Positions 8,337-35,306 of a DNA stretch of 64,000 nucleotides are shown here, piece by piece. Location: NCBI GenBank assembly GCA_017428025.1, contig JAFRRO010000065.1, positions 2,621 to 66,620 of the forward strand, given 5' to 3'. A program made the position numbers and the translations under genes. The notes beneath the pieces are model-generated. The model made no database searches, was not told the origin of the DNA, and saw only the letters and a list, made by a program, of their open reading frames with translations. This DNA comes from Clostridia bacterium (GTDB lineage: Bacteria > Bacillota > Clostridia > Christensenellales > CAG-138). Position 1 is the stretch's first letter. Every line of letters begins with the position of its first letter.

Positions 8337-9626
8337 ATGAAACGCAGCCGATTCTGGACCGTTCTGATTGTATTCAGCCTGATCGGACAGATCGCTTGGG
8401 TGGTCGAGAACATGTACTTCAACGTGTTCATCTACCACATGTTCAACGCATCCCCGAAGGAGATCTCGCTGATGGTGCAGGCAAGCGCCGTCGCGGCGAC
8501 GCTGACGACCGTTTTCGTCGGCGCGCTTTCCGACCGTCTCGGCAAGCGCAAGGTGTTCATGGTCATCGGCTATCTCCTCTGGGGCGTCTCGATTCTATGC
8601 TTTGCGTTTCTGCGCACCGACTGGATCGGCGTCGTCTTCCCGACCGTTGCGAACGCCGCGGCGCTCGGCTGCGCGCTCGTCATCGTGTTCGACTGCATCA
8701 TGACGTTCTTCGGCTCGTCTGCCAACGACGCCTGCTTCAACGCGTGGCTGACGGACAGCACCGACGACACGAACCGCGGCAAAGCGGAAGGCGTCAACGC
8801 CATGATGCCGCTTCTGGCGATCCTCGCGGTGTTCGGCGGCACGATGTGGGCGGACACGTCGAACGCGGCGCACTGGACGATCCTGTTTCTGATCATCGGC
8901 GGGATCGTGCTCGTCTGCGGCGTGCTCGGACTGTTTTTGATCGAGGAGCCGAAAGGACTGCTCCGGCAGGCGGCGGGCTATCGCGAAACGCTGCTCTACG
9001 GCTTCCGTCCGAGCGTCGTGAAGGCAAACGCGTCGCTCTATTGGGCGCTGCTCGCGTTCACCGTGTTCGGCATTTCCATTCAGATCTACATGCCGTATCT
9101 GATCCTCTACTACACCGAGGCCCTGCATCTTTCGAACTACGTGCTGATCATGGCGCCCGCGATCCTGCTTGCGGCGGTCGCGACGGCGCTGTACGGGCGG
9201 CTGTTCGACCGGTTCGGCTACCGCAGAACGCTGATTCCGGCGCTCTGCGTGCTGATGCTCGGCTATGCGGTGCTGTATCTGTTCCGGCACACCGCGTTCG
9301 TCTTTGTCGGCTCGCTTCTTATGATGTGCGGATACCTCTGCGGCATGGCGGTGTTCGGCGCGCGCATCCGCGAGACGACGCCCGTCGGCATGGCGGGACG
9401 CTTTCAGGGACTGCGCATCGTCGCGCAGGTGCTGATCCCCGGCGTCATCGGTCCCGCGATCGGAAGTCTTGTCCTGCGCGGCGCCGAAACCGTATTGAAC
9501 AGCGACGGCACGACCTCCTTCATCCCGAACGCAAACATCTTCCTGTGGGCGGGCATCGCGCTGATCCCGATCGCCGTTCTGCTGCTGATCGAATCCGCGC
9601 GAAACGATAAGACCGCCCGCGCCTGA
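8337..9626 (+). CDS. MFS transporter (sugar uptake inferred from gal context)
   Basis: 429 aa, hydrophobic throughout with a 12-TM-like pattern. It starts 3 nt after the galK stop. Confidence 0.8.
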   Translation: MKRSRFWTVLIVFSLIGQIAWVVENMYFNVFIYHMFNASPKEISLMVQASAVAATLTTVFVGALSDRLGKRKVFMVIGYLLWGVSILCFAFLRTDWIGVVFPTVANAAALGCALVIVFDCIMTFFGSSANDACFNAWLTDSTDDTNRGKAEGVNAMMPLLAILAVFGGTMWADTSNAAHWTILFLIIGGIVLVCGVLGLFLIEEPKGLLRQAAGYRETLLYGFRPSVVKANASLYWALLAFTVFGISIQIYMPYLILYYTEALHLSNYVLIMAPAILLAAVATALYGRLFDRFGYRRTLIPALCVLMLGYAVLYLFRHTAFVFVGSLLMMCGYLCGMAVFGARIRETTPVGMAGRFQGLRIVAQVLIPGVIGPAIGSLVLRGAETVLNSDGTTSFIPNANIFLWAGIALIPIAVLLLIESARNDKTARA

Positions 9627-25477: not shown

Positions 25478-26353
25478 ATGAACAGCATGACCGGATACGG
25501 AAAGGGCACGGCTGCCCGCGACGGACGCGAACTGACCGTCGAACTCAAGAGCGTCAACCATCGGTTTCTCGATGTGTCGATGCGCTTGCCGCGCATTCTT
25601 TCGTGCATCGAAGATCCGCTCCGCGCCGCGATCGCAAAGCGGCTTGCCCGCGGACACGTCGACGTGTTTGTGAACTACCGCAACACGCGCAGCGACGCGA
25701 AGACCGTGCGCGTGGACGCGGTGCTGCTCAAGGCATATGTCTATGCCGCAGACGAAGCGAACGAAACGCTGCATCTGCCGAACGACCTGACGCTTTCAAA
25801 CGTCCTGCGTCTGCCGGACGTGACGGAGATCGTCCCCGCAGATGAGGATACCGACACGCTGATCGCGCTCGCGAAGGAAGCGACGAATCAGGCGCTCGAC
25901 GCGATGCTTGTAATGCGAAAAGCCGAGGGTGAACGGCTGAAGGCCGCGCTCGCTTCGGGCGTCAATCAGATGGACGCGTACCGGGAGCAGATTCTCTCTC
26001 GCGCGCCGTTTGTTGCGGAGGACTACCGCAGAAAGCTCAACGAGCGCATCGAAAGCGTTCTTTCGGACGCCGAGATCGACCGCGCAAGGCTTGCGACCGA
26101 GGTTGCGCTGTTTGCGGACCGCTGCTGCATCGACGAGGAACTGGTGCGGCTCAAGAGCCACATCACGCAGTTTCGCGCCTATCTCGAGGCGTCGGAGCCG
26201 GTCGGACGCAATATGGACTTTATCGTGCAGGAGATGAACCGCGAGTGCAACACGATCGGCAGCAAGGCGAACGACGCCGAGCTGACCAAGGCCGTTTTAG
26301 GCTGCAAGGCGGAGATCGAAAAGCTGCGCGAGCAGATACAGAACGTGGAGTAA
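25478..26353 (+). CDS. YicC/YloC-family stress-induced protein
   Basis: Start at ATG 25478 ([10 protein letters not shown]...[11 protein letters not shown]). C-terminal block [20 protein letters not shown]. Confidence 0.85.
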
Positions 26354-26627: not shown

Positions 26628-27254
26628 ATGGCAAGAAAGAAAAAGGGATTGTTGATCGTCGTCTCCGGTCCCGCAGGCGTCGGCAAGGGAACCGTCAACG
26701 CGGCGCTGATGCAGAAGCATCCGGAGATCAGAATGTCCGTGTCCGTCACGACGCGCGCGCCGCGTCCCGGCGAAATCGAGGGCGTGCACTACTTCTTCCG
26801 CACCAAGGAGGAGTTCGACCGCATGATCGATGAGGATGCGTTCCTCGAGTATATGCACGTGTTCGGCATGAACTACTACGGCACGCCGAAGGCGTTCGTC
26901 GAAACGGAGCGGAACAAGGGCAACCACGTGATCCTCGAGATCGACGTGCAGGGCGCGATGAAGGTCAAATCCCGTTGCCCCGACGCGGTGCTCGTGTTCA
27001 TCGCTCCCCCGTCGCTTAAGGTTCTCAAGGACCGGCTCGTGGGGCGCGGCACCGAGACGCAGGAATCGATCGACGTACGCACCGCAACGGCGCTCGAAGA
27101 ACTCAAAAAACTGCCCGACTACGACTACATGGTCATCAACGACGTCGTGGAAGAGGCGGTTGCGGATATGGAAGCAATCCTTTCGGCGGAACTCAACCGC
27201 ACGGCAAGGAATCAGACATTGATTACGAAACTGACAGGAGGCGAAACGATATGA
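26628..27254 (+). CDS. gmk: guanylate kinase
   Basis: GPAGVGKGT P-loop, SVTTRAPRPGEIEGVHYFF. Confidence 0.95.
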   Translation: MARKKKGLLIVVSGPAGVGKGTVNAALMQKHPEIRMSVSVTTRAPRPGEIEGVHYFFRTKEEFDRMIDEDAFLEYMHVFGMNYYGTPKAFVETERNKGNHVILEIDVQGAMKVKSRCPDAVLVFIAPPSLKVLKDRLVGRGTETQESIDVRTATALEELKKLPDYDYMVINDVVEEAVADMEAILSAELNRTARNQTLITKLTGGETI

Positions 27255-27508: not shown

Positions 27509-29746
<2,238 letters not shown>

Positions 29747-29747
29747 T

Positions 29748-31565
29748 ATGACGAAAAAAGATCGATACAAACCGCTGTTTCTCCCCGCGTTCCGGGGTTC
29801 GATCGGCGTATTTCTGCTCGGCGCGATCGAGGTCGTCCTCAGCATCGTCGCGCTGTATCTGTCGTCGCTTGTAACGAGCTATACGCTCGACTACGTGCTG
29901 CTCGGGCAGAACCCGTCCGTTCCGGCGGCTCTGTTCGAACGGCTCAAAGCGCTCGGTCCGCTCGGCAGAAGCTACTGGCTCTGCGGTCTCGCGTTCTTCC
30001 TGTTTACGGCGCTGAACGGACTGTTTACCTTCCTGCGCCGCCGCAACGTGGCGAAGGGCGCGGAGCGCATGGCGAAGAAGATGCGCGACATGCTCTACCG
30101 CAAGCTGAACGCCGTGCCGTACGACTGGCACAAGCATATCTCGACCGGCGATCTCGTGCAGCGCTGCACGTCCGACGTCGAAACGGTGCGCGGCTTCATC
30201 ACGAATCAGCTGATGGAAATCGTGCGCATCGCGGTGATGTTCGTCGTCGCCGCCGCGCTGATGTTCGCGATCCGGTGGCAGATGGCGCTGATCTCGATGG
30301 CGGTCATGCCGCTGTTGACCGCGTCGAGCTTCCTGTACTTCCGCTTTGTGCGCAAATACTTCTCCGACGTCGACGAAGCCGAAGGCGCGCTGTCCACGGC
30401 GATTCAGGAGAACCTGACCGGCGTGCGCGTGGTGCGCGCGTTCGGACAGGAGCGCGCCGAGTACGACAAGTTCACCGCGCTGAACCGCGACTTTGCAAAA
30501 AAGAACATCCGGCTCGTCAACCTGCTCGGCTTCTACTGGGGCGGTTCGGACGCGGTCGGATATCTGCAGATCGCGCTGTCGCTCGCGTGCGGCATCCTCT
30601 TCTATGTCAAGACGCGCGGCACCGCCGATCCGTTCACGCTCGGCGACATCTATCTGTTCCTGTCGCTGACGAGCCGCCTGACCTGGCCGGTGCGTCAGCT
30701 CGGCCGCGTGCTCGCCGACATGGGCAAGGCGACCGTTTCGCTCGACCGTCTCAACGAGATCATGACCGCCGAAGACGAAACCGAGCCCGGCAAGGCGCGG
30801 ACCGATCTGAGCCTTCGCGGCGACATCACGTTCTCGCATGTTTCGTTCGGCTACGACGCGAAAAACGACGTGCTCGACGACATCAGCTTCACCGCGCACG
30901 CGGGCGAGACCGTGGCGATCCTCGGCAGCACCGGCAGCGGCAAGAGCTCGCTCGTGCAGCTTCTGCAGCGCCTGTACACCGTAAACGAGGGCGAGATCAC
31001 GATCAACGGCGTGCCGATCAACGACATCGACCATCACCTGCTGCGCAAAAACATCGCGATCGTCCTGCAGGAACCGTTCCTGTATTCGCGCACGATCCGC
31101 GAGAACATCACGCTGACCGTTCCCGATGCGACGAGCGAAGCGCTCGAAACCGCGGCGCGCGAGGCGGCGATCCACGACGTCATCGAGAAGTTCGCGGACG
31201 GCTACGATACCGTCGTCGGCGAACGCGGCGTCACGCTTTCGGGCGGACAGCAGCAACGTGTGGCGATCGCGCGTGCGCTGATGCAGCGCGCGCCGATCAT
31301 GATCTTCGACGACTCGATGAGCGCGGTCGACACCGAGACCGACGCGAAGATCCGCGCGGCGCTGAAAAGCCATCACGGCGACGGCATTCTGTTCATCATC
31401 TCGCACCGCATCACGACACTGTGCGAGGCGGACCGCATACTGGTGCTCGACCGCGGCAGACTCGTGCAGCAGGGCACGCACGACGAACTGATCCGGGAGG
31501 ACGGTCTCTACCGGCGCATCGCGATCATCCAGGACTACCCTGCGGAAGGAGGTGCAATCGCATGA
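29748..31565 (+). CDS. ABC exporter, fused permease/ATPase (heterodimer half 1)
   Basis: Six-TM N-terminal half, Walker A GSTGSGKSS, signature LSGGQQQR, Walker B IMIFDD. Confidence 0.9.
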   Translation: MTKKDRYKPLFLPAFRGSIGVFLLGAIEVVLSIVALYLSSLVTSYTLDYVLLGQNPSVPAALFERLKALGPLGRSYWLCGLAFFLFTALNGLFTFLRRRNVAKGAERMAKKMRDMLYRKLNAVPYDWHKHISTGDLVQRCTSDVETVRGFITNQLMEIVRIAVMFVVAAALMFAIRWQMALISMAVMPLLTASSFLYFRFVRKYFSDVDEAEGALSTAIQENLTGVRVVRAFGQERAEYDKFTALNRDFAKKNIRLVNLLGFYWGGSDAVGYLQIALSLACGILFYVKTRGTADPFTLGDIYLFLSLTSRLTWPVRQLGRVLADMGKATVSLDRLNEIMTAEDETEPGKARTDLSLRGDITFSHVSFGYDAKNDVLDDISFTAHAGETVAILGSTGSGKSSLVQLLQRLYTVNEGEITINGVPINDIDHHLLRKNIAIVLQEPFLYSRTIRENITLTVPDATSEALETAAREAAIHDVIEKFADGYDTVVGERGVTLSGGQQQRVAIARALMQRAPIMIFDDSMSAVDTETDAKIRAALKSHHGDGILFIISHRITTLCEADRILVLDRGRLVQQGTHDELIREDGLYRRIAIIQDYPAEGGAIA

Positions 31566-33427
31566 GTTACGACAACGAACTCGAATTCGATAAGGAAGCC
31601 AAGATGGACGGCAAGCTCTGGAAGCGGCTGTTCGGCTATGCGCTGCGCAACCGCGGGCTGTTTGTCCGCATCCTGATCTCCATGCTGATCGTTTCGATCA
31701 TCGACGCGCTCTACCCCGTGCTGACGCGCGTTGCGATCGACCGGTTTGTGCGCCCCGCCGACACGCCTACGACCGACGGACTGTGGATCTTCTTTGCGAT
31801 CTACGCGGCGCTCGTCATCCTCCAGGGATTCTTCACGACGCGCTTCATCGGGCGGTCCGGACAGATGGAAACGGCGATCTCCTACGCGATCCGTCAGGAG
31901 GCGTATCTCAAGCTGCAGACGCTGTCCTTCTCGTACTACGACAAGACCTCCACGGGCTATCTCATGGCGCGCATGGTCAGCGACGTCGCGCGGCTCTCCG
32001 ATATGATCGCGTGGAGCATCACGGACTTCCTCTGGTCGTTCTTCTACATCGTGTTCTGCTTTGCGGCGATGTTCTCGTTCAACTGGAAGCTCGCGCTGAT
32101 CGTTGCGGCGGTCATTCCCCCGCTTGCGGTCGTCAGCCTCTATATCCAGCGCGCGATCCTGCGCTATCAGCGCGTGGCGCGCCGCCACAACTCGCGCATC
32201 ACCGGCGCGTTCAACGAGGGCATCATGGGCGCGATGACGACCAAGACGCTCGTGCGCGAGGAACAGAACGCGGCGGAGTTCGAGGCGATCACGACCGACA
32301 TGCGCAGGGCAAGCATCCGGGCGTCCGTCCTTTCCGCAACGTTCTTCCCGCTCGTCATCTCGCTCGGCGCGATCGGAACGGCGCTTGCGCTGATCTTCGG
32401 CGGCGCGGGCGTGCAGGCGACGCTCGGCGGCGAGGAAACCTTCATCGGCGTCATCACGGCGGGCACGCTCGTGTCGTTCATCAACTACGCGTCGAGCCTC
32501 TTCGATCCGATCCAGCAGCTTGCGGGCATCTTTGCCGACATGCAGAGCGCGCAAGCGAGCGCCGAGCGCGTACTGGGACTTTTAGATACCGAATCCGAAG
32601 TCAGGGACACGCCCGAAGCCGAGGCGAAATACGGCACGACGATGGATCCGAAGCGCGAAAACTGGGAGCCGATCGAGGGCGACATCGCCTTCGACCATGT
32701 GGATTTCTATTATAAGGAATCCGAACCGCTTCTGCAGGACTTCAACCTGCACATCCGCGCGGGCGAAACCGTGGCGCTCGTCGGCGAGACCGGCGCGGGC
32801 AAGAGCACGATCGTCAACCTCATCTGCCGCTTCTACGAGCCCAAGAAGGGACGTATCCTGATCGACGGCAAAGACTATCGCGAGCGTTCGCAGCTGTGGC
32901 TGCAATCGTCTCTCGGCTACGTTCTGCAGCAGCCGCATCTGTTCTCCGGCTCGATCCGCGACAACATCCGCTTCGGCTGTCCCGACGCGGACGAGGAGCG
33001 CGTGCGCCGCGCGGCGGCGATGGTCCACGCGGACGAATTCATCGAGCGTCAGCCGAAGGGCTACGACACCGAGGTCGGCGAAGGCGGCGTACGGCTGTCG
33101 ACCGGTCAGAAGCAGCTGATCTCGTTTGCGCGCGTCATCCTTGCGAACCCGCAGATCTTCGTGCTCGACGAGGCGACGAGCTCGATCGACACCGAGACCG
33201 AGCAGCTGATCCAGAACGCGATCACCGAAGTGCTGAAGGGCCGCACGAGCATCGTCGTGGCGCACCGTCTTTCGACGATCCGCAACGCGGACCGCATTCT
33301 CGTCATTCGCGGCGGCGCGATCGTCGAGCAGGGCGATCACGAAACGCTGCTGAAAAAAGGCGGCTACTATCACGACCTCTACATGCACCAGTATGAGGAG
33401 GACGCGATGCAGGAAGCGCTGAAATAA
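31562..33427 (+). CDS. ABC exporter, fused permease/ATPase (heterodimer half 2)
   Basis: Start at ATG 31562 (MSYDNELEF), overlapping the upstream stop. Walker A GETGAGKST, variant signature LSTGQKQL, Walker B IFVLDE. Confidence 0.9.
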   Translation: MSYDNELEFDKEAKMDGKLWKRLFGYALRNRGLFVRILISMLIVSIIDALYPVLTRVAIDRFVRPADTPTTDGLWIFFAIYAALVILQGFFTTRFIGRSGQMETAISYAIRQEAYLKLQTLSFSYYDKTSTGYLMARMVSDVARLSDMIAWSITDFLWSFFYIVFCFAAMFSFNWKLALIVAAVIPPLAVVSLYIQRAILRYQRVARRHNSRITGAFNEGIMGAMTTKTLVREEQNAAEFEAITTDMRRASIRASVLSATFFPLVISLGAIGTALALIFGGAGVQATLGGEETFIGVITAGTLVSFINYASSLFDPIQQLAGIFADMQSAQASAERVLGLLDTESEVRDTPEAEAKYGTTMDPKRENWEPIEGDIAFDHVDFYYKESEPLLQDFNLHIRAGETVALVGETGAGKSTIVNLICRFYEPKKGRILIDGKDYRERSQLWLQSSLGYVLQQPHLFSGSIRDNIRFGCPDADEERVRRAAAMVHADEFIERQPKGYDTEVGEGGVRLSTGQKQLISFARVILANPQIFVLDEATSSIDTETEQLIQNAITEVLKGRTSIVVAHRLSTIRNADRILVIRGGAIVEQGDHETLLKKGGYYHDLYMHQYEEDAMQEALK

Positions 33428-33532: not shown

Positions 33533-34579
33533 TCAGAGGTACTTGACCTGCAGCGAACCGAAGTTGACGTCCGCGCGGATGATGATGTTCTGCGTCGCGT
33601 CCGGATCGGGATCGCCGGTGCAGGTGAACGCCGCAAACGAGGTGTCGGAAGACTTCACCATGCGGACATGGCGCGGCAGCAGGATCGTGATGTTGCCGAA
33701 GTTCTGGTCGATCTTCAAAAGGCAGTCCGGCACAAACGTGATGACGTTGCGAAGGTCGATCGTATAGTCGCCGAAGTTCGAGTCGATGCTGCCGCCCGCG
33801 AGCACCTCGCGGTCATAGGTGATGTAACTGTTCCCGAAGCTCATGTCGGCTTCCAGATAGTTGTTGTCGTCCGAGTAGTCGAGCGTCGGCTTGCGGTCCG
33901 AGTTGTTTTTCGCGGCGTACTTCTGCTTTCTGCGGAAAACATGCGTCTTGCCGAGAATGACCATCACGAGCGCGATGATCGCGCCGATCAGCAGGATTAC
34001 ATACCAGCGGACTTCGGGCAGCGTCGTGTTGCCGTAAGTCAAAAGGATGCGACGGACGAATTCATAGCCGCCGAAGCCCATCATGACGGAGCCGAACGTG
34101 ATGCTGCTTCTGATCGAGATCAGACCGAGCGTGAAGATCAGCAGCGGCCATACGACGTCCCAGCCCTTCATCGGCGGCTCCAGCTTTTCATAGGGGAACA
34201 TGCCCGCTACGCTGTGCAGCAGGAAGAACAGGCATACAAGGATCGCGCCGATGCAGAACGCGATCGTCTGCCAGTTGCCGCTGTGCCTGTTCCATTCGAA
34301 TTTGAAGCTCTTCTTCGGATCGTCCTTCGGCACTTCATCCTTATCTAAAATGATAACGTGCGGTTCGACCGGCTTGACGCCCAAGAGCTCGTCCACCGAG
34401 ACGTCGAACAGATCGGCCAAAAGCGGCAGCAGCGTGATGTCCGGACAGCTGATGTCGTTTTCCCATTTGCTGACCGCCTGCGCGGAGACGCCGACCTTTT
34501 CGGCAAGCTGTTCCTGCGTGAGACCTTTTTCTTTTCTGAGTGCGGCAATGCGCTTGCCGAGCGTTTCTTTTTGTTCCAT
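33533..34579 (-). CDS. membrane-anchored XRE-family HTH regulator with LiaF-like C-terminal domain
   Basis: Start at ATG 34579 (MEQKETLGKRIAALRKEKGLTQEQLAEKVGVSAQAVSKWEN) after GGGAGGA. About 4 TM segments follow. The beta-rich C-terminus contains NFGNITILLP...ADVNFGSLQV. Confidence 0.75.
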   Translation of the reverse strand: MEQKETLGKRIAALRKEKGLTQEQLAEKVGVSAQAVSKWENDISCPDITLLPLLADLFDVSVDELLGVKPVEPHVIILDKDEVPKDDPKKSFKFEWNRHSGNWQTIAFCIGAILVCLFFLLHSVAGMFPYEKLEPPMKGWDVVWPLLIFTLGLISIRSSITFGSVMMGFGGYEFVRRILLTYGNTTLPEVRWYVILLIGAIIALVMVILGKTHVFRRKQKYAAKNNSDRKPTLDYSDDNNYLEADMSFGNSYITYDREVLAGGSIDSNFGDYTIDLRNVITFVPDCLLKIDQNFGNITILLPRHVRMVKSSDTSFAAFTCTGDPDPDATQNIIIRADVNFGSLQVKYL

Positions 34580-34646
34580 GGTTGTTTCCTCCCTGTTTTT
34601 GTCGGCTACAGCATAACAAACCCGTCGAAAAAGAACCATCGACCGT

Positions 34647-34774
34647 CGGTTGAATTTGCGGATTTTCCTCTACCCTGTCGGTTGAGTCGGTCAAAATCGT
34701 TCTATCCGTACGGTTGAGTCGGTCCGTTTTACTCTCCACCTGCGGTTGAATCGAACGATTTCACGGATATTTTA
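34647..34774. repeat. four direct repeats in exact 32-bp register (core CGGTTGARTY)
   Basis: Cores start at 34647, 34679, 34711 and 34743. Units 2 and 3 share CGGTTGAGTCGGTC. The array lies between the divergent XRE-membrane gene and the def promoter. Confidence 0.85.
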
Positions 34775-34783
34775 CCGATTTTA

Positions 34784-34812
34784 TTTACAAAGGTCAAGAA
34801 AAACAGTATAAT
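34784..34812 (+). promoter_or_regulatory. sigma-70-type promoter of the def-fmt-rsmB... operon
   Basis: TTTACA, 17-nt spacer, TATAAT (34807-34812). Confidence 0.6.
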
Positions 34813-34838
34813 AATTGTTTGAAAACGGAGGTTTTGGT

Positions 34839-35306
34839 ATGGCGTTACGCAATATTCGCAAAAACGACGATCCCGCGCTCTACAAGGTGTGCAAGGACGT
34901 CAAAAAGTTCGATGAAAAGCTTTCCGTGCTCATCGACGATATGATCGAGACCATGAACAACGCGGACGGCGTGGGACTTGCTGCGCCGCAGGTCGGCGTG
35001 CTCCGGCGCGTGCTGGTCATCGATGTAGGCGACGGCCCCGTGGAAATGGTCAATCCCGTGATTCTGGAATCCTCCGGCGAGCAGGGCGGCATGGAAGGCT
35101 GTCTCTCCTTCCCCGGCGAAAGCGGCTACGTCGTGCGTCCGAACAAGGTCAAGGTCGAGGCGTACGACCGTCACGGCGATCTCTACGAATACGAGGGCGA
35201 AGGGCTGTTTGCCCGCGCCGTCTTCCACGAGACGGATCATCTGGACGGCAAGGTCTACAAGCGTCTGGTCACCGAACCGCCCGCCGACTGGAAGGAACCG
35301 GAATAA
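34839..35306 (+). CDS. def: peptide deformylase
   Basis: Start at ATG 34839 after GGAGG. Motifs GVGLAAPQ, EGCLSFPG and HETDHLDG. Confidence 0.95.
   Translation: MALRNIRKNDDPALYKVCKDVKKFDEKLSVLIDDMIETMNNADGVGLAAPQVGVLRRVLVIDVGDGPVEMVNPVILESSGEQGGMEGCLSFPGESGYVVRPNKVKVEAYDRHGDLYEYEGEGLFARAVFHETDHLDGKVYKRLVTEPPADWKEPE

Follow-up and report, generated by a model that had tools for sequence, protein, structure and literature searches.

A candidate operator array of four sites in exact 32-bp register upstream of a membrane-anchored XRE regulator gene in a Clostridia bacterium

Results

We analyzed a 64,000-nucleotide stretch of contig JAFRRO010000065.1 from a Clostridia bacterium (lineage CAG-138; hereafter the window, to which all coordinates refer), in which four copies of a short core, CGGTTGA, lie in a 259-bp divergent intergenic region between the gene for a membrane-anchored XRE regulator, to the left on the minus strand, and def, the peptide deformylase gene, to the right on the plus strand. 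We conclude that these copies probably form operator sites of the adjacent regulator, which combines a helix-turn-helix (HTH) domain with four transmembrane (TM) helices and a LiaF-like C-terminal domain, and that they likely act on the regulator's own promoter, here called P1. Judged from sequence comparisons, the array is real and functional. An initial annotation of this DNA had described the divergent gene context correctly and had proposed an operator array of the neighboring regulator with autoregulation and perhaps an effect on def-fmt. The operator and its autoregulatory role are upheld by conservation, by the association of a palindrome with this HTH type, by the geometry of P1 and by loci that lack def; the def-fmt link fared less well, with a fixed spacing to the def promoter and sites abutting the def -35 in distant relatives as its support.

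Four cores stand in an exact register

The cores begin on the plus strand at 34647 (CGGTTGAATT), 34679 (CGGTTGAGTC), 34711 (CGGTTGAGTC) and 34743 (CGGTTGAATC), exactly 32 bp apart as first described, and the 14-mer common to units 2 and 3 is also present (CGGTTGAGTCGGTC). The degenerate 10-mer CGGTTGARTY occurred five times in the window, against 0.58 expected, and none of 100 shuffles reached five; the fifth match, at 27190, stands alone. The bare 7-mer was not enriched over the whole window (11 matches against 10.5 expected), and the signal therefore lies in clustering and register: at about 8e-5 per position, the arithmetic chance of finding three more cores at exactly +32, +64 and +96 is about 1e-12. 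No other pair of cores spaced by 32 bp was found in 222 kb of sequence made up of the window and related loci.

The array does not count as an ordinary tandem repeat: Tandem Repeats Finder (TRF) reported none there. Its cores are short (7–10 bp), and it lacks the make-up of a head-to-tail repeat, an iteron or a CRISPR-like element. We also scanned metagenomes for three cores at 32-bp spacing, as a pattern search rather than a census, and obtained at least 120 matches. Among the matches listed, 108 of 120 were ordinary tandem repeats with a period of 8, 16 or 32, unlike the array in appearance, and 12 had unrelated spacers; only these 12 are informative. Two matches were set aside as unrelated to the operator. 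One was a coincidental match on a eukaryote-like contig with an ACACGC microsatellite (L105), where TCAACCGC/GCGGTTGA form a dense cluster at 1–420; the other was a GC-rich locus (L143) whose spacers are partly alike (15–16 of 25) and which has no regulator or def match nearby.

The register is conserved in every close ortholog

Regulator orthologs 64–90% identical to the window protein were fetched with their DNA, and further loci came from the metagenome scan. All fetched orthologs had two ATP-binding cassette (ABC) transporter genes followed by the regulator, divergent from def-fmt-rsmB, and the same ABC-regulator-def order was seen in relatives only 36–39% identical (L002–L005). When the DNA was aligned on the first core across 18 regulator-linked loci (regulator 55–99% identical where the gene was on the contig), the units stood in exact 32-bp register in 18 of 18, with zero indels from the regulator-side -10 element to the last unit. 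Across the 14 non-redundant orthologs, the CGGTTGA columns carried 1.93 bits per position against 0.69 bits for the spacer at +10 to +19. The initial annotation had staked its reading on the phased cores being conserved in genomes that keep the regulator, and both cores and register were indeed kept in every close ortholog. Beyond these, 32-bp spacing was confined to the LiaF-like clade at 46% identity or above (L001; L213; L212, with 32 then 21 bp; L015, with 22 then 32 bp). In the LiaF-like clade at 30–33% identity, the sites are apparently centered about -51/-52 from a TGATAGCWT element, a geometry that differs from that of the window.

The core is half of a palindrome shared by a large HTH subfamily

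Comparison with more distant relatives revealed a palindrome, TCAACC-N3-GGTTGA, whose right half is the core. Regulator homologs 30–40% identical carry this palindrome upstream of their own genes, usually twice and 22–23 bp apart, whichever gene is the neighbor. We scored it, allowing up to two mismatches, at 80 loci from species-representative genomes that encode either the whole protein or the HTH alone. The 300-bp regions upstream of the 80 HTH genes held 91 matches, compared with 13 in the other 527 kb, an enrichment of about 155-fold, and 65 of the 80 loci were positive. Most of the 80 proteins are not membrane proteins at all, being soluble proteins of about 164 aa or fusions of the HTH to tetratricopeptide repeats (TPR), and the association held across all three C-terminal contexts (164-aa soluble, TPR and 4TM-LiaF-like) and across neighbor genes. 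These three types share the recognition helix SAQAVSKWEN. Because palindrome and helix are common to several architectures, the DNA specificity would belong to the HTH subfamily. As a small hint of covariation, the palindrome was absent from 4 of 4 proteins with QSVSKWE, as against 10 of 76 with QAVSKWE, although the numbers are small and some loci are related. The soluble and TPR-fused relatives (L017–L080) come from metagenome-assembled genomes of Oscillospiraceae, Lachnospiraceae, Bacilli and Mollicutes, and their sites are usually 22–23 bp apart. Elsewhere in the window, two-mismatch palindromes occur at 8737, 25554 and 42279, of which the one at 25554 lies within a coding region.

The spacings themselves follow a rule. 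Upstream of the 80 genes, the distances that separate TCAAC half-sites on one strand cluster at 21–23, 30–32, 43–45 and 54 bp, with a best period of 10.7 bp (vector strength 0.57, Rayleigh p about 4e-10, for pairs that are not fully independent). The earlier argument that 32 bp corresponds to about three helical turns, which would set all sites on the same face of the DNA, fits this periodicity; to judge from these distances, the 32-bp same-face spacing is a special case of the family rule, since the family spacings follow the 10.7-bp period.

Anatomy of the four units

Viewed as palindromic sites, the units turned out to be unequal. Unit 1 (34639–34653) reads TCGACC-GTC-GGTTGA, a near-perfect N3 palindrome with one mismatch to TCAACC-N3-GGTTGA, and is the most conserved of the four among the 14 orthologs. 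Unit 2 (34668–34686) reads CTCTACC-CTGTC-GGTTGAG, with a strong right half-site at 34680–34685 and the left half TCTACC, and its entire 19-mer is kept in most orthologs; in nearly all of them this left half lies 5 bp from GGTTGA, whereas units 1, 3 and 4 use 3 bp. Unit 3 (34700–34718) has its right half-site GGTTGA at 34712–34717 and a left half that is degenerate in the window (TCTATC), the ortholog consensus being CTCTCTAC-nnn-CGGTTGA. Unit 4 (34735–34749), TCCACC-TGC-GGTTGA, is again an N3 palindrome with one mismatch.

Each unit extends beyond its core in the orthologs: a CTCTAC-type element lies 3–5 bp upstream and a phased T-tract at the 3' end, giving a full consensus, tGCTCTCTAC-nnn-CGGTTGA-aTcG...TTTT, that is larger than the 10-mer. 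The left halves of units 2–4 are the variant TCTAC or TCCAC, and the same variant is found in secondary sites elsewhere in the HTH family. The sequence between the cores had been called unconserved. This is not entirely so, given the conserved CTCTAC-type element and T-tract, and the units are asymmetric palindromic sites and not simple direct repeats. Units 2 and 3 have a GTCGGTC extension in common, which is only weakly conserved among orthologs. A 12-nt inverted repeat links the spacer between units 2 and 3 to the stretch past unit 4 (34694–34705 and 34750–34761, AAATCGTTCTAT and ATCGAACGATTT, 92% complementary); it is not conserved in orthologs and is probably fortuitous.

The regulator is a membrane-anchored XRE protein

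The regulator gene (33533–34579, minus strand) encodes a protein of 348 aa with an XRE HTH, a linker, four TM helices and a C-terminal beta domain. Pfam assigned HTH_3 at 67.7 bits and LiaF-like_C at the borderline (29.0 bits against a cutoff of 29), while the NCBIfam model LiaF_C_term scored 25 against a cutoff of 57; NCBIfam gave no family-level name. An AlphaFold (AF2) model built with 29 homologs (mean predicted local distance difference test score, pLDDT, 75.7) showed a five-helix HTH at residues 7–65, a disordered linker at 72–99, long helices at 103–125, 139–155, 160–181 and 192–224, and an all-beta domain of about 110 aa at 241–347. Pfam and the model together thus agree with the first description of the gene as a membrane-anchored XRE regulator of the HTH-4TM-LiaF-like type. 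Because there are four TM helices, the N- and C-termini are both predicted to be cytoplasmic; hydropathy counts in relatives gave 2–5 TM segments. The HTH has the Cro/cI fold, with PDB profile matches to ImmR, the 434 repressor, SinR and P22 c2. Structural comparison with Foldseek placed ImmR, SinR and P22 c2 at target-normalized TM-scores of 0.86–0.90 with a root-mean-square deviation (rmsd) of about 1 Å, and the best PDB match was ImmR, both by sequence (E 5.7e-11) and by structure (target-normalized TM-score 0.89).

The array keeps a fixed distance from a putative promoter of the regulator gene

In the 14-ortholog alignment, columns -7, -11, -12, -14 and -15 on the regulator side were conserved while -8 to -10 and -13 varied, which is the signature of an extended -10 promoter (TGnTAnnnT). 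This putative promoter, P1, occupies 34618–34610 on the minus strand (TGTTATGCT) and would start transcription near 34603; it was read from the alignment and was not called by the promoter scan. Its geometry places a weak -35-like hexamer, TGGTTC, at 34633–34638 on the same strand, directly abutting unit 1. Relative to the P1 start (-12 at 34615), unit 1 spans -36 to -50, and units 2–4 are centered at about -75, -107 and -139. The 37 bp from the P1 -10 hexamer to the first core were constant in 21 of 21 loci, including the transporter-gene cassettes described below, and site 1 is therefore centered near -43.

Three further lines of evidence tie the array to P1 and not to def. First, three loci (L001, L213 and L212) keep the array and P1 and have a convergent gene or an unrelated neighbor in place of def; where the array is kept and def is absent, def would not be its primary target. 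Second, the same 37-bp offset recurs on metagenome contigs in front of transporter genes: a three-unit 32-bp array with its -10 element precedes a major facilitator superfamily (MFS) transporter gene on L110 (1385–1540), where the terminator of the upstream gene immediately precedes it, and on L201 (1900–2035), and precedes an ABC transporter gene on L140 (2420–2570). None of the three cassettes has an HTH gene in the divergent position. Third, in several 164-aa relatives, our reading of the upstream sequences places the promoter-proximal site against a -35-like hexamer that is 17 bp from a -10-like hexamer.

The cassettes, all on metagenome contigs, are candidate regulon members or duplicated cassettes, and their transporter genes suggest an efflux or envelope response. 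The L140 leader is also similar (TTTTGTCGG), and a fragment of an HTH-TPR gene lies immediately upstream of the L140 cassette. The L140 ABC gene is not an ortholog of the window ABC genes, to which it is about 27% identical. A gene 70% identical to it (2521–3258 on L140) occurs on L062 (1919–6145), where it is translationally coupled to another HTH-TPR regulator with the helix TAGAVHKWE and has no array; the L140 array sits in place of this regulator-ABC junction, and the transporter gene seems to have switched regulators.

The def side and the flanking genes

On the other side of the array, def (34839–35306, plus strand, ATG at 34839; Pep_deformylase E 1.5e-44) is the first gene of def-fmt-rsmB-rlmN. 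The promoter scan bore out the strong def promoter of the initial annotation, TTTACA-17-TATAAT (Pdef, 34784–34812, plus strand), which matches consensus at 11 of 12 positions and is invariant in orthologs. The distance from the array had been put at about 10 bp before the def -35, a figure that proved to be an artefact of the chosen end coordinate: 31 bp separate the end of the last core (34752) from the -35 (34784). The scan also called a second promoter on the minus strand, P2 (34797–34769, TTGACC-17-TAAAAT), which overlaps Pdef such that, within 34769–34812, the -35 of each lies inside the spacer of the other. Both hexamer pairs are near-invariant in orthologs, and one locus (L087) has TATAAT at the P2 -10. 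Given this overlap, RNA polymerase could occupy Pdef or P2 singly but not both at once. P2 would transcribe through the whole operator array.

Between unit 4 and Pdef there is a fifth 32-bp block (34761–34792), near-invariant and fixed in length, which holds the P2 -10 (TAAAAT, 34774–34769) and an A/T-rich region upstream of Pdef. A fifth in-register site beside the Pdef -35 was considered, and the sequence there, CCGATTT, is not credible as an operator. Farther to the left, priA (27509–29746) runs straight into two ABC exporter genes that are convergent on the regulator (27509–33427 for the whole stretch). The ABC pair was rejected as a direct target of the array: the start codon of the first gene overlaps the priA stop, and there is no intergenic operator. 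In Firmicutes, priA and def are usually neighbors, and in the window the ABC pair and the regulator lie between them.

Discussion

Together, these data suggest a model in which each unit would be an asymmetric form of the family palindrome, made up of a strong half-site, CGGTTGA, and a weak one (TCGACC, TCTAC or TCCAC). Regulator dimers would contact each unit on the side of the DNA that faces the membrane; the three-turn spacing would place all sites on one face, the side from which membrane-tethered dimers must approach. P1 combines an extended -10 with a weak -35; there, site 1 (about -43) would abut the -35 position, and sites 2–4, reaching up to about -139, would feed cooperative occupancy along the array.

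As to the sign of regulation, we lean slightly toward positive autoregulation through a class-II contact like that of lambda cI at PRM, because P1 has an extended -10 and a weak -35, because site 1 at about -43 is placed as cI is at OR2 for PRM, because the other sites are upstream only, and because BcrR, a membrane-bound XRE regulator compared below, is an activator.

Several observations weigh against the model as a whole or in part. Most characterized XRE proteins are repressors, and the favored sign is weakly founded. P1 was missed by the promoter scan and was read from conservation, and the regulator gene could also be transcribed from P2, another conserved promoter-like site that lies upstream of the array. 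The background for the palindrome enrichment was whole loci including coding sequence, and related loci are not independent. Many paralogous proteins have an identical recognition helix, and a paralog could occupy the sites. Units 2 and 3 are poor N3 palindromes, and the conserved 2-bp offset of the unit 2 left half is not what a rigid dimer would be expected to tolerate.

The most serious alternative, possible although we do not consider it the probable case, keeps the same protein and the same sites and reverses the sign: with the sites filled cooperatively from -36 to about -145, P1 would be occluded or wrapped until an envelope signal released it, in the manner of classical negative autoregulation by XRE proteins. 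The nearest structural relatives of the regulator (ImmR, SinR, P22 c2 and the 434 repressor) are best known as repressors, cooperative repression from multiple operators is the norm in the Cro/cI fold family, and site 1 does touch the -35 position. However, at a promoter with an extended -10 and a poor -35, a protein upstream of the -35 is badly placed to block, and the additional sites are all upstream, with none over the -10 or the start. Moreover, the proximal site abutting a -35-like hexamer recurs in the 164-aa relatives, and BcrR activates (PMC3968067).

We find it doubtful that the array mainly controls the divergent def-fmt-rsmB promoter, either directly or by tipping the balance between Pdef and P2. 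The divergent regulator-def synteny reaches down to 36% identity (L003–L006, L015), a site abuts the def -35 in L003 and L006, unit 4 always lies equally far from Pdef in the close clade, with a near-invariant 32-bp block between, and Pdef and P2 overlap. Against this, array and P1 persist without def as a neighbor, in the three def-less loci and before the MFS and ABC genes. In the window the gap from the last core to the def -35 is 31 bp and unit 4 is centered at about -77, block 5 has no recognizable site, and the near-consensus Pdef should need no activator.

It is unlikely that the sites are mainly occupied by a paralog from another part of the genome, a soluble or TPR-fused protein of the HTH subfamily. 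Helix and palindrome are common to at least three protein architectures, and the L140 cassette sits beside an HTH-TPR fragment; yet the four-unit, 32-bp, CTCTAC-type layout is specific to the LiaF-like clade at 46% identity or above, the 164-aa family uses 22–23 bp, no such paralog is encoded in the 64-kb window, and sites near the own gene are the rule across the family.

Returning to the adjacent regulator as the occupant, a more specific form of the model can be drawn, which we offer as speculation with a small chance of being right: the 32-bp register would be more than same-face phasing and would be set by a higher-order, membrane-apposed assembly of the regulator, for example through stacked cytoplasmic LiaF-like beta domains, that lays about 130 bp of promoter DNA flat on the membrane; the portable cassette would define a small MFS/ABC efflux regulon, and here the P2/Pdef balance would be tipped as well. 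If this were true, envelope state would be coupled to def-fmt, the enzymes of N-terminal formylation and deformylation.

It is very unlikely that the repeats act in RNA, as a protein-bound or switch-forming 5' leader of the regulator mRNA. Such a transcript is conceivable, as the conserved minus-strand TTGACC-17-TAAAAT would start near 34762 and take in all four repeats. However, there was no Rfam match in 34300–35000 at E values up to 10 other than a noise match (CRISPR-DR42, E 7.1), shuffled sequences fold at least as well as the 186-nt P2 leader (z = +0.74), and the consensus structure for 14 orthologs (-7.5 kcal/mol) is the palindrome hairpin alone. P2 is missing at the arrays of L001, L213, L110, L201 and L140, where terminators or convergent genes come before the array, and the motif is a DNA palindrome common to unrelated leaders. 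Finally, a repeat that arose by chance or is neutral, be it a decayed tandem duplication, an iteron or the remnant of a mobile element, would fit the many ordinary tandem repeats among the metagenome matches listed, but it is refuted as far as sequence goes by the TRF result, by the chance estimate and by unrelated spacers with cores kept at orthologous positions beside proteins 55–99% identical.

Arrays of this general kind are familiar from soluble regulators of the Cro/cI type. Multiple operators are found in lambda and 434 (OR1–3, with cI activating PRM from OR2) and in PBSX, where four Xre operators lie between xre and the divergent promoter; in ICEBs1, ImmR sites are found between immR and xis. 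The window shares with these systems the HTH fold, the presence of several palindromic sites in the divergent intergenic region beside the regulator gene itself and the expectation of cooperative autoregulation, and its proximal site at about -43 beside a weak -35 resembles OR2 at -42 from PRM. It differs in that the regulator is an integral membrane protein and not a soluble repressor, in its strongly asymmetric sites, and in a center-to-center spacing of 32 bp compared with about 23–24 bp in lambda (22–23 bp in the wider HTH family). The flanks, with priA, the ABC pair and def, also bear no trace of the phage or integrative and conjugative element (ICE) context of these systems, including that of ImmR, whose structure is available (PMC8960796).

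The regulator belongs to the transmembrane transcription regulators and is nearest in architecture to BcrR of Enterococcus faecalis, a membrane-bound one-component XRE activator of the bcrABD bacitracin transporter (PMC3968067; PMC13384398). Judged by architecture, the two are alike in that a single polypeptide joins an N-terminal XRE HTH to four TM helices and lacks any large extracytoplasmic domain. BcrR acts from the membrane on a nearby transporter-operon promoter; here, similar cassettes stand before MFS and ABC genes. The isolated DNA-binding domain of BcrR reportedly has no affinity when its TM domain is missing (PMC13384398), and BcrR has been studied with reporters in Bacillus subtilis (PMC3968067). 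Unlike BcrR, the window protein ends in an additional beta domain of about 110 aa (LiaF-like_C, borderline), and its best-supported target is its own promoter. The BcrR operator is reportedly composed of two inverted repeats, which differs from the motif and the 4 × 32-bp layout here. The wider class, surveyed in PMC10269533, includes ToxR, TcpP, CadC and ChiS/TfoS. These too combine DNA binding and a membrane anchor in one protein, bring target DNA to the membrane and commonly use multiple or phased sites, but they do so with winged-helix or other domains and periplasmic sensors, whereas the window protein has an XRE HTH and both termini predicted to be cytoplasmic. As for LiaF of the LiaFSR system, the weak LiaF-like_C match after a multi-TM region is the likeness; LiaF itself has no DNA-binding domain and works with LiaS and LiaR. 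We rejected identity as a LiaF ortholog given the HTH, the borderline domain score and the absence of liaSR genes near the regulator, both in the window and at ortholog loci, where the neighbors are ABC genes and def-fmt-rsmB.

Literature searches found no published operator for this HTH family and no paper on an HTH-LiaF-like fusion. The principle of an autoregulatory, multi-operator region of Cro/cI type is textbook and the three-helical-turn layout is unusual; the finding is of value for annotation and as a convenient experimental system rather than for any new mechanism. How membrane-tethered regulators organize their target DNA is an acknowledged open question (PMC10269533; PMC3968067), and this locus, with sites at integer helical turns, three turns apart, four times over, would be a clean model case for such regulators. 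The portable cassette that precedes MFS and ABC genes points to a candidate inducible efflux or envelope response. More broadly, TCAACC-N3-GGTTGA may serve as the operator motif of a very large, uncharacterized XRE subfamily in gut and rumen Clostridia, for which a single search scored more than 5,000 relatives.

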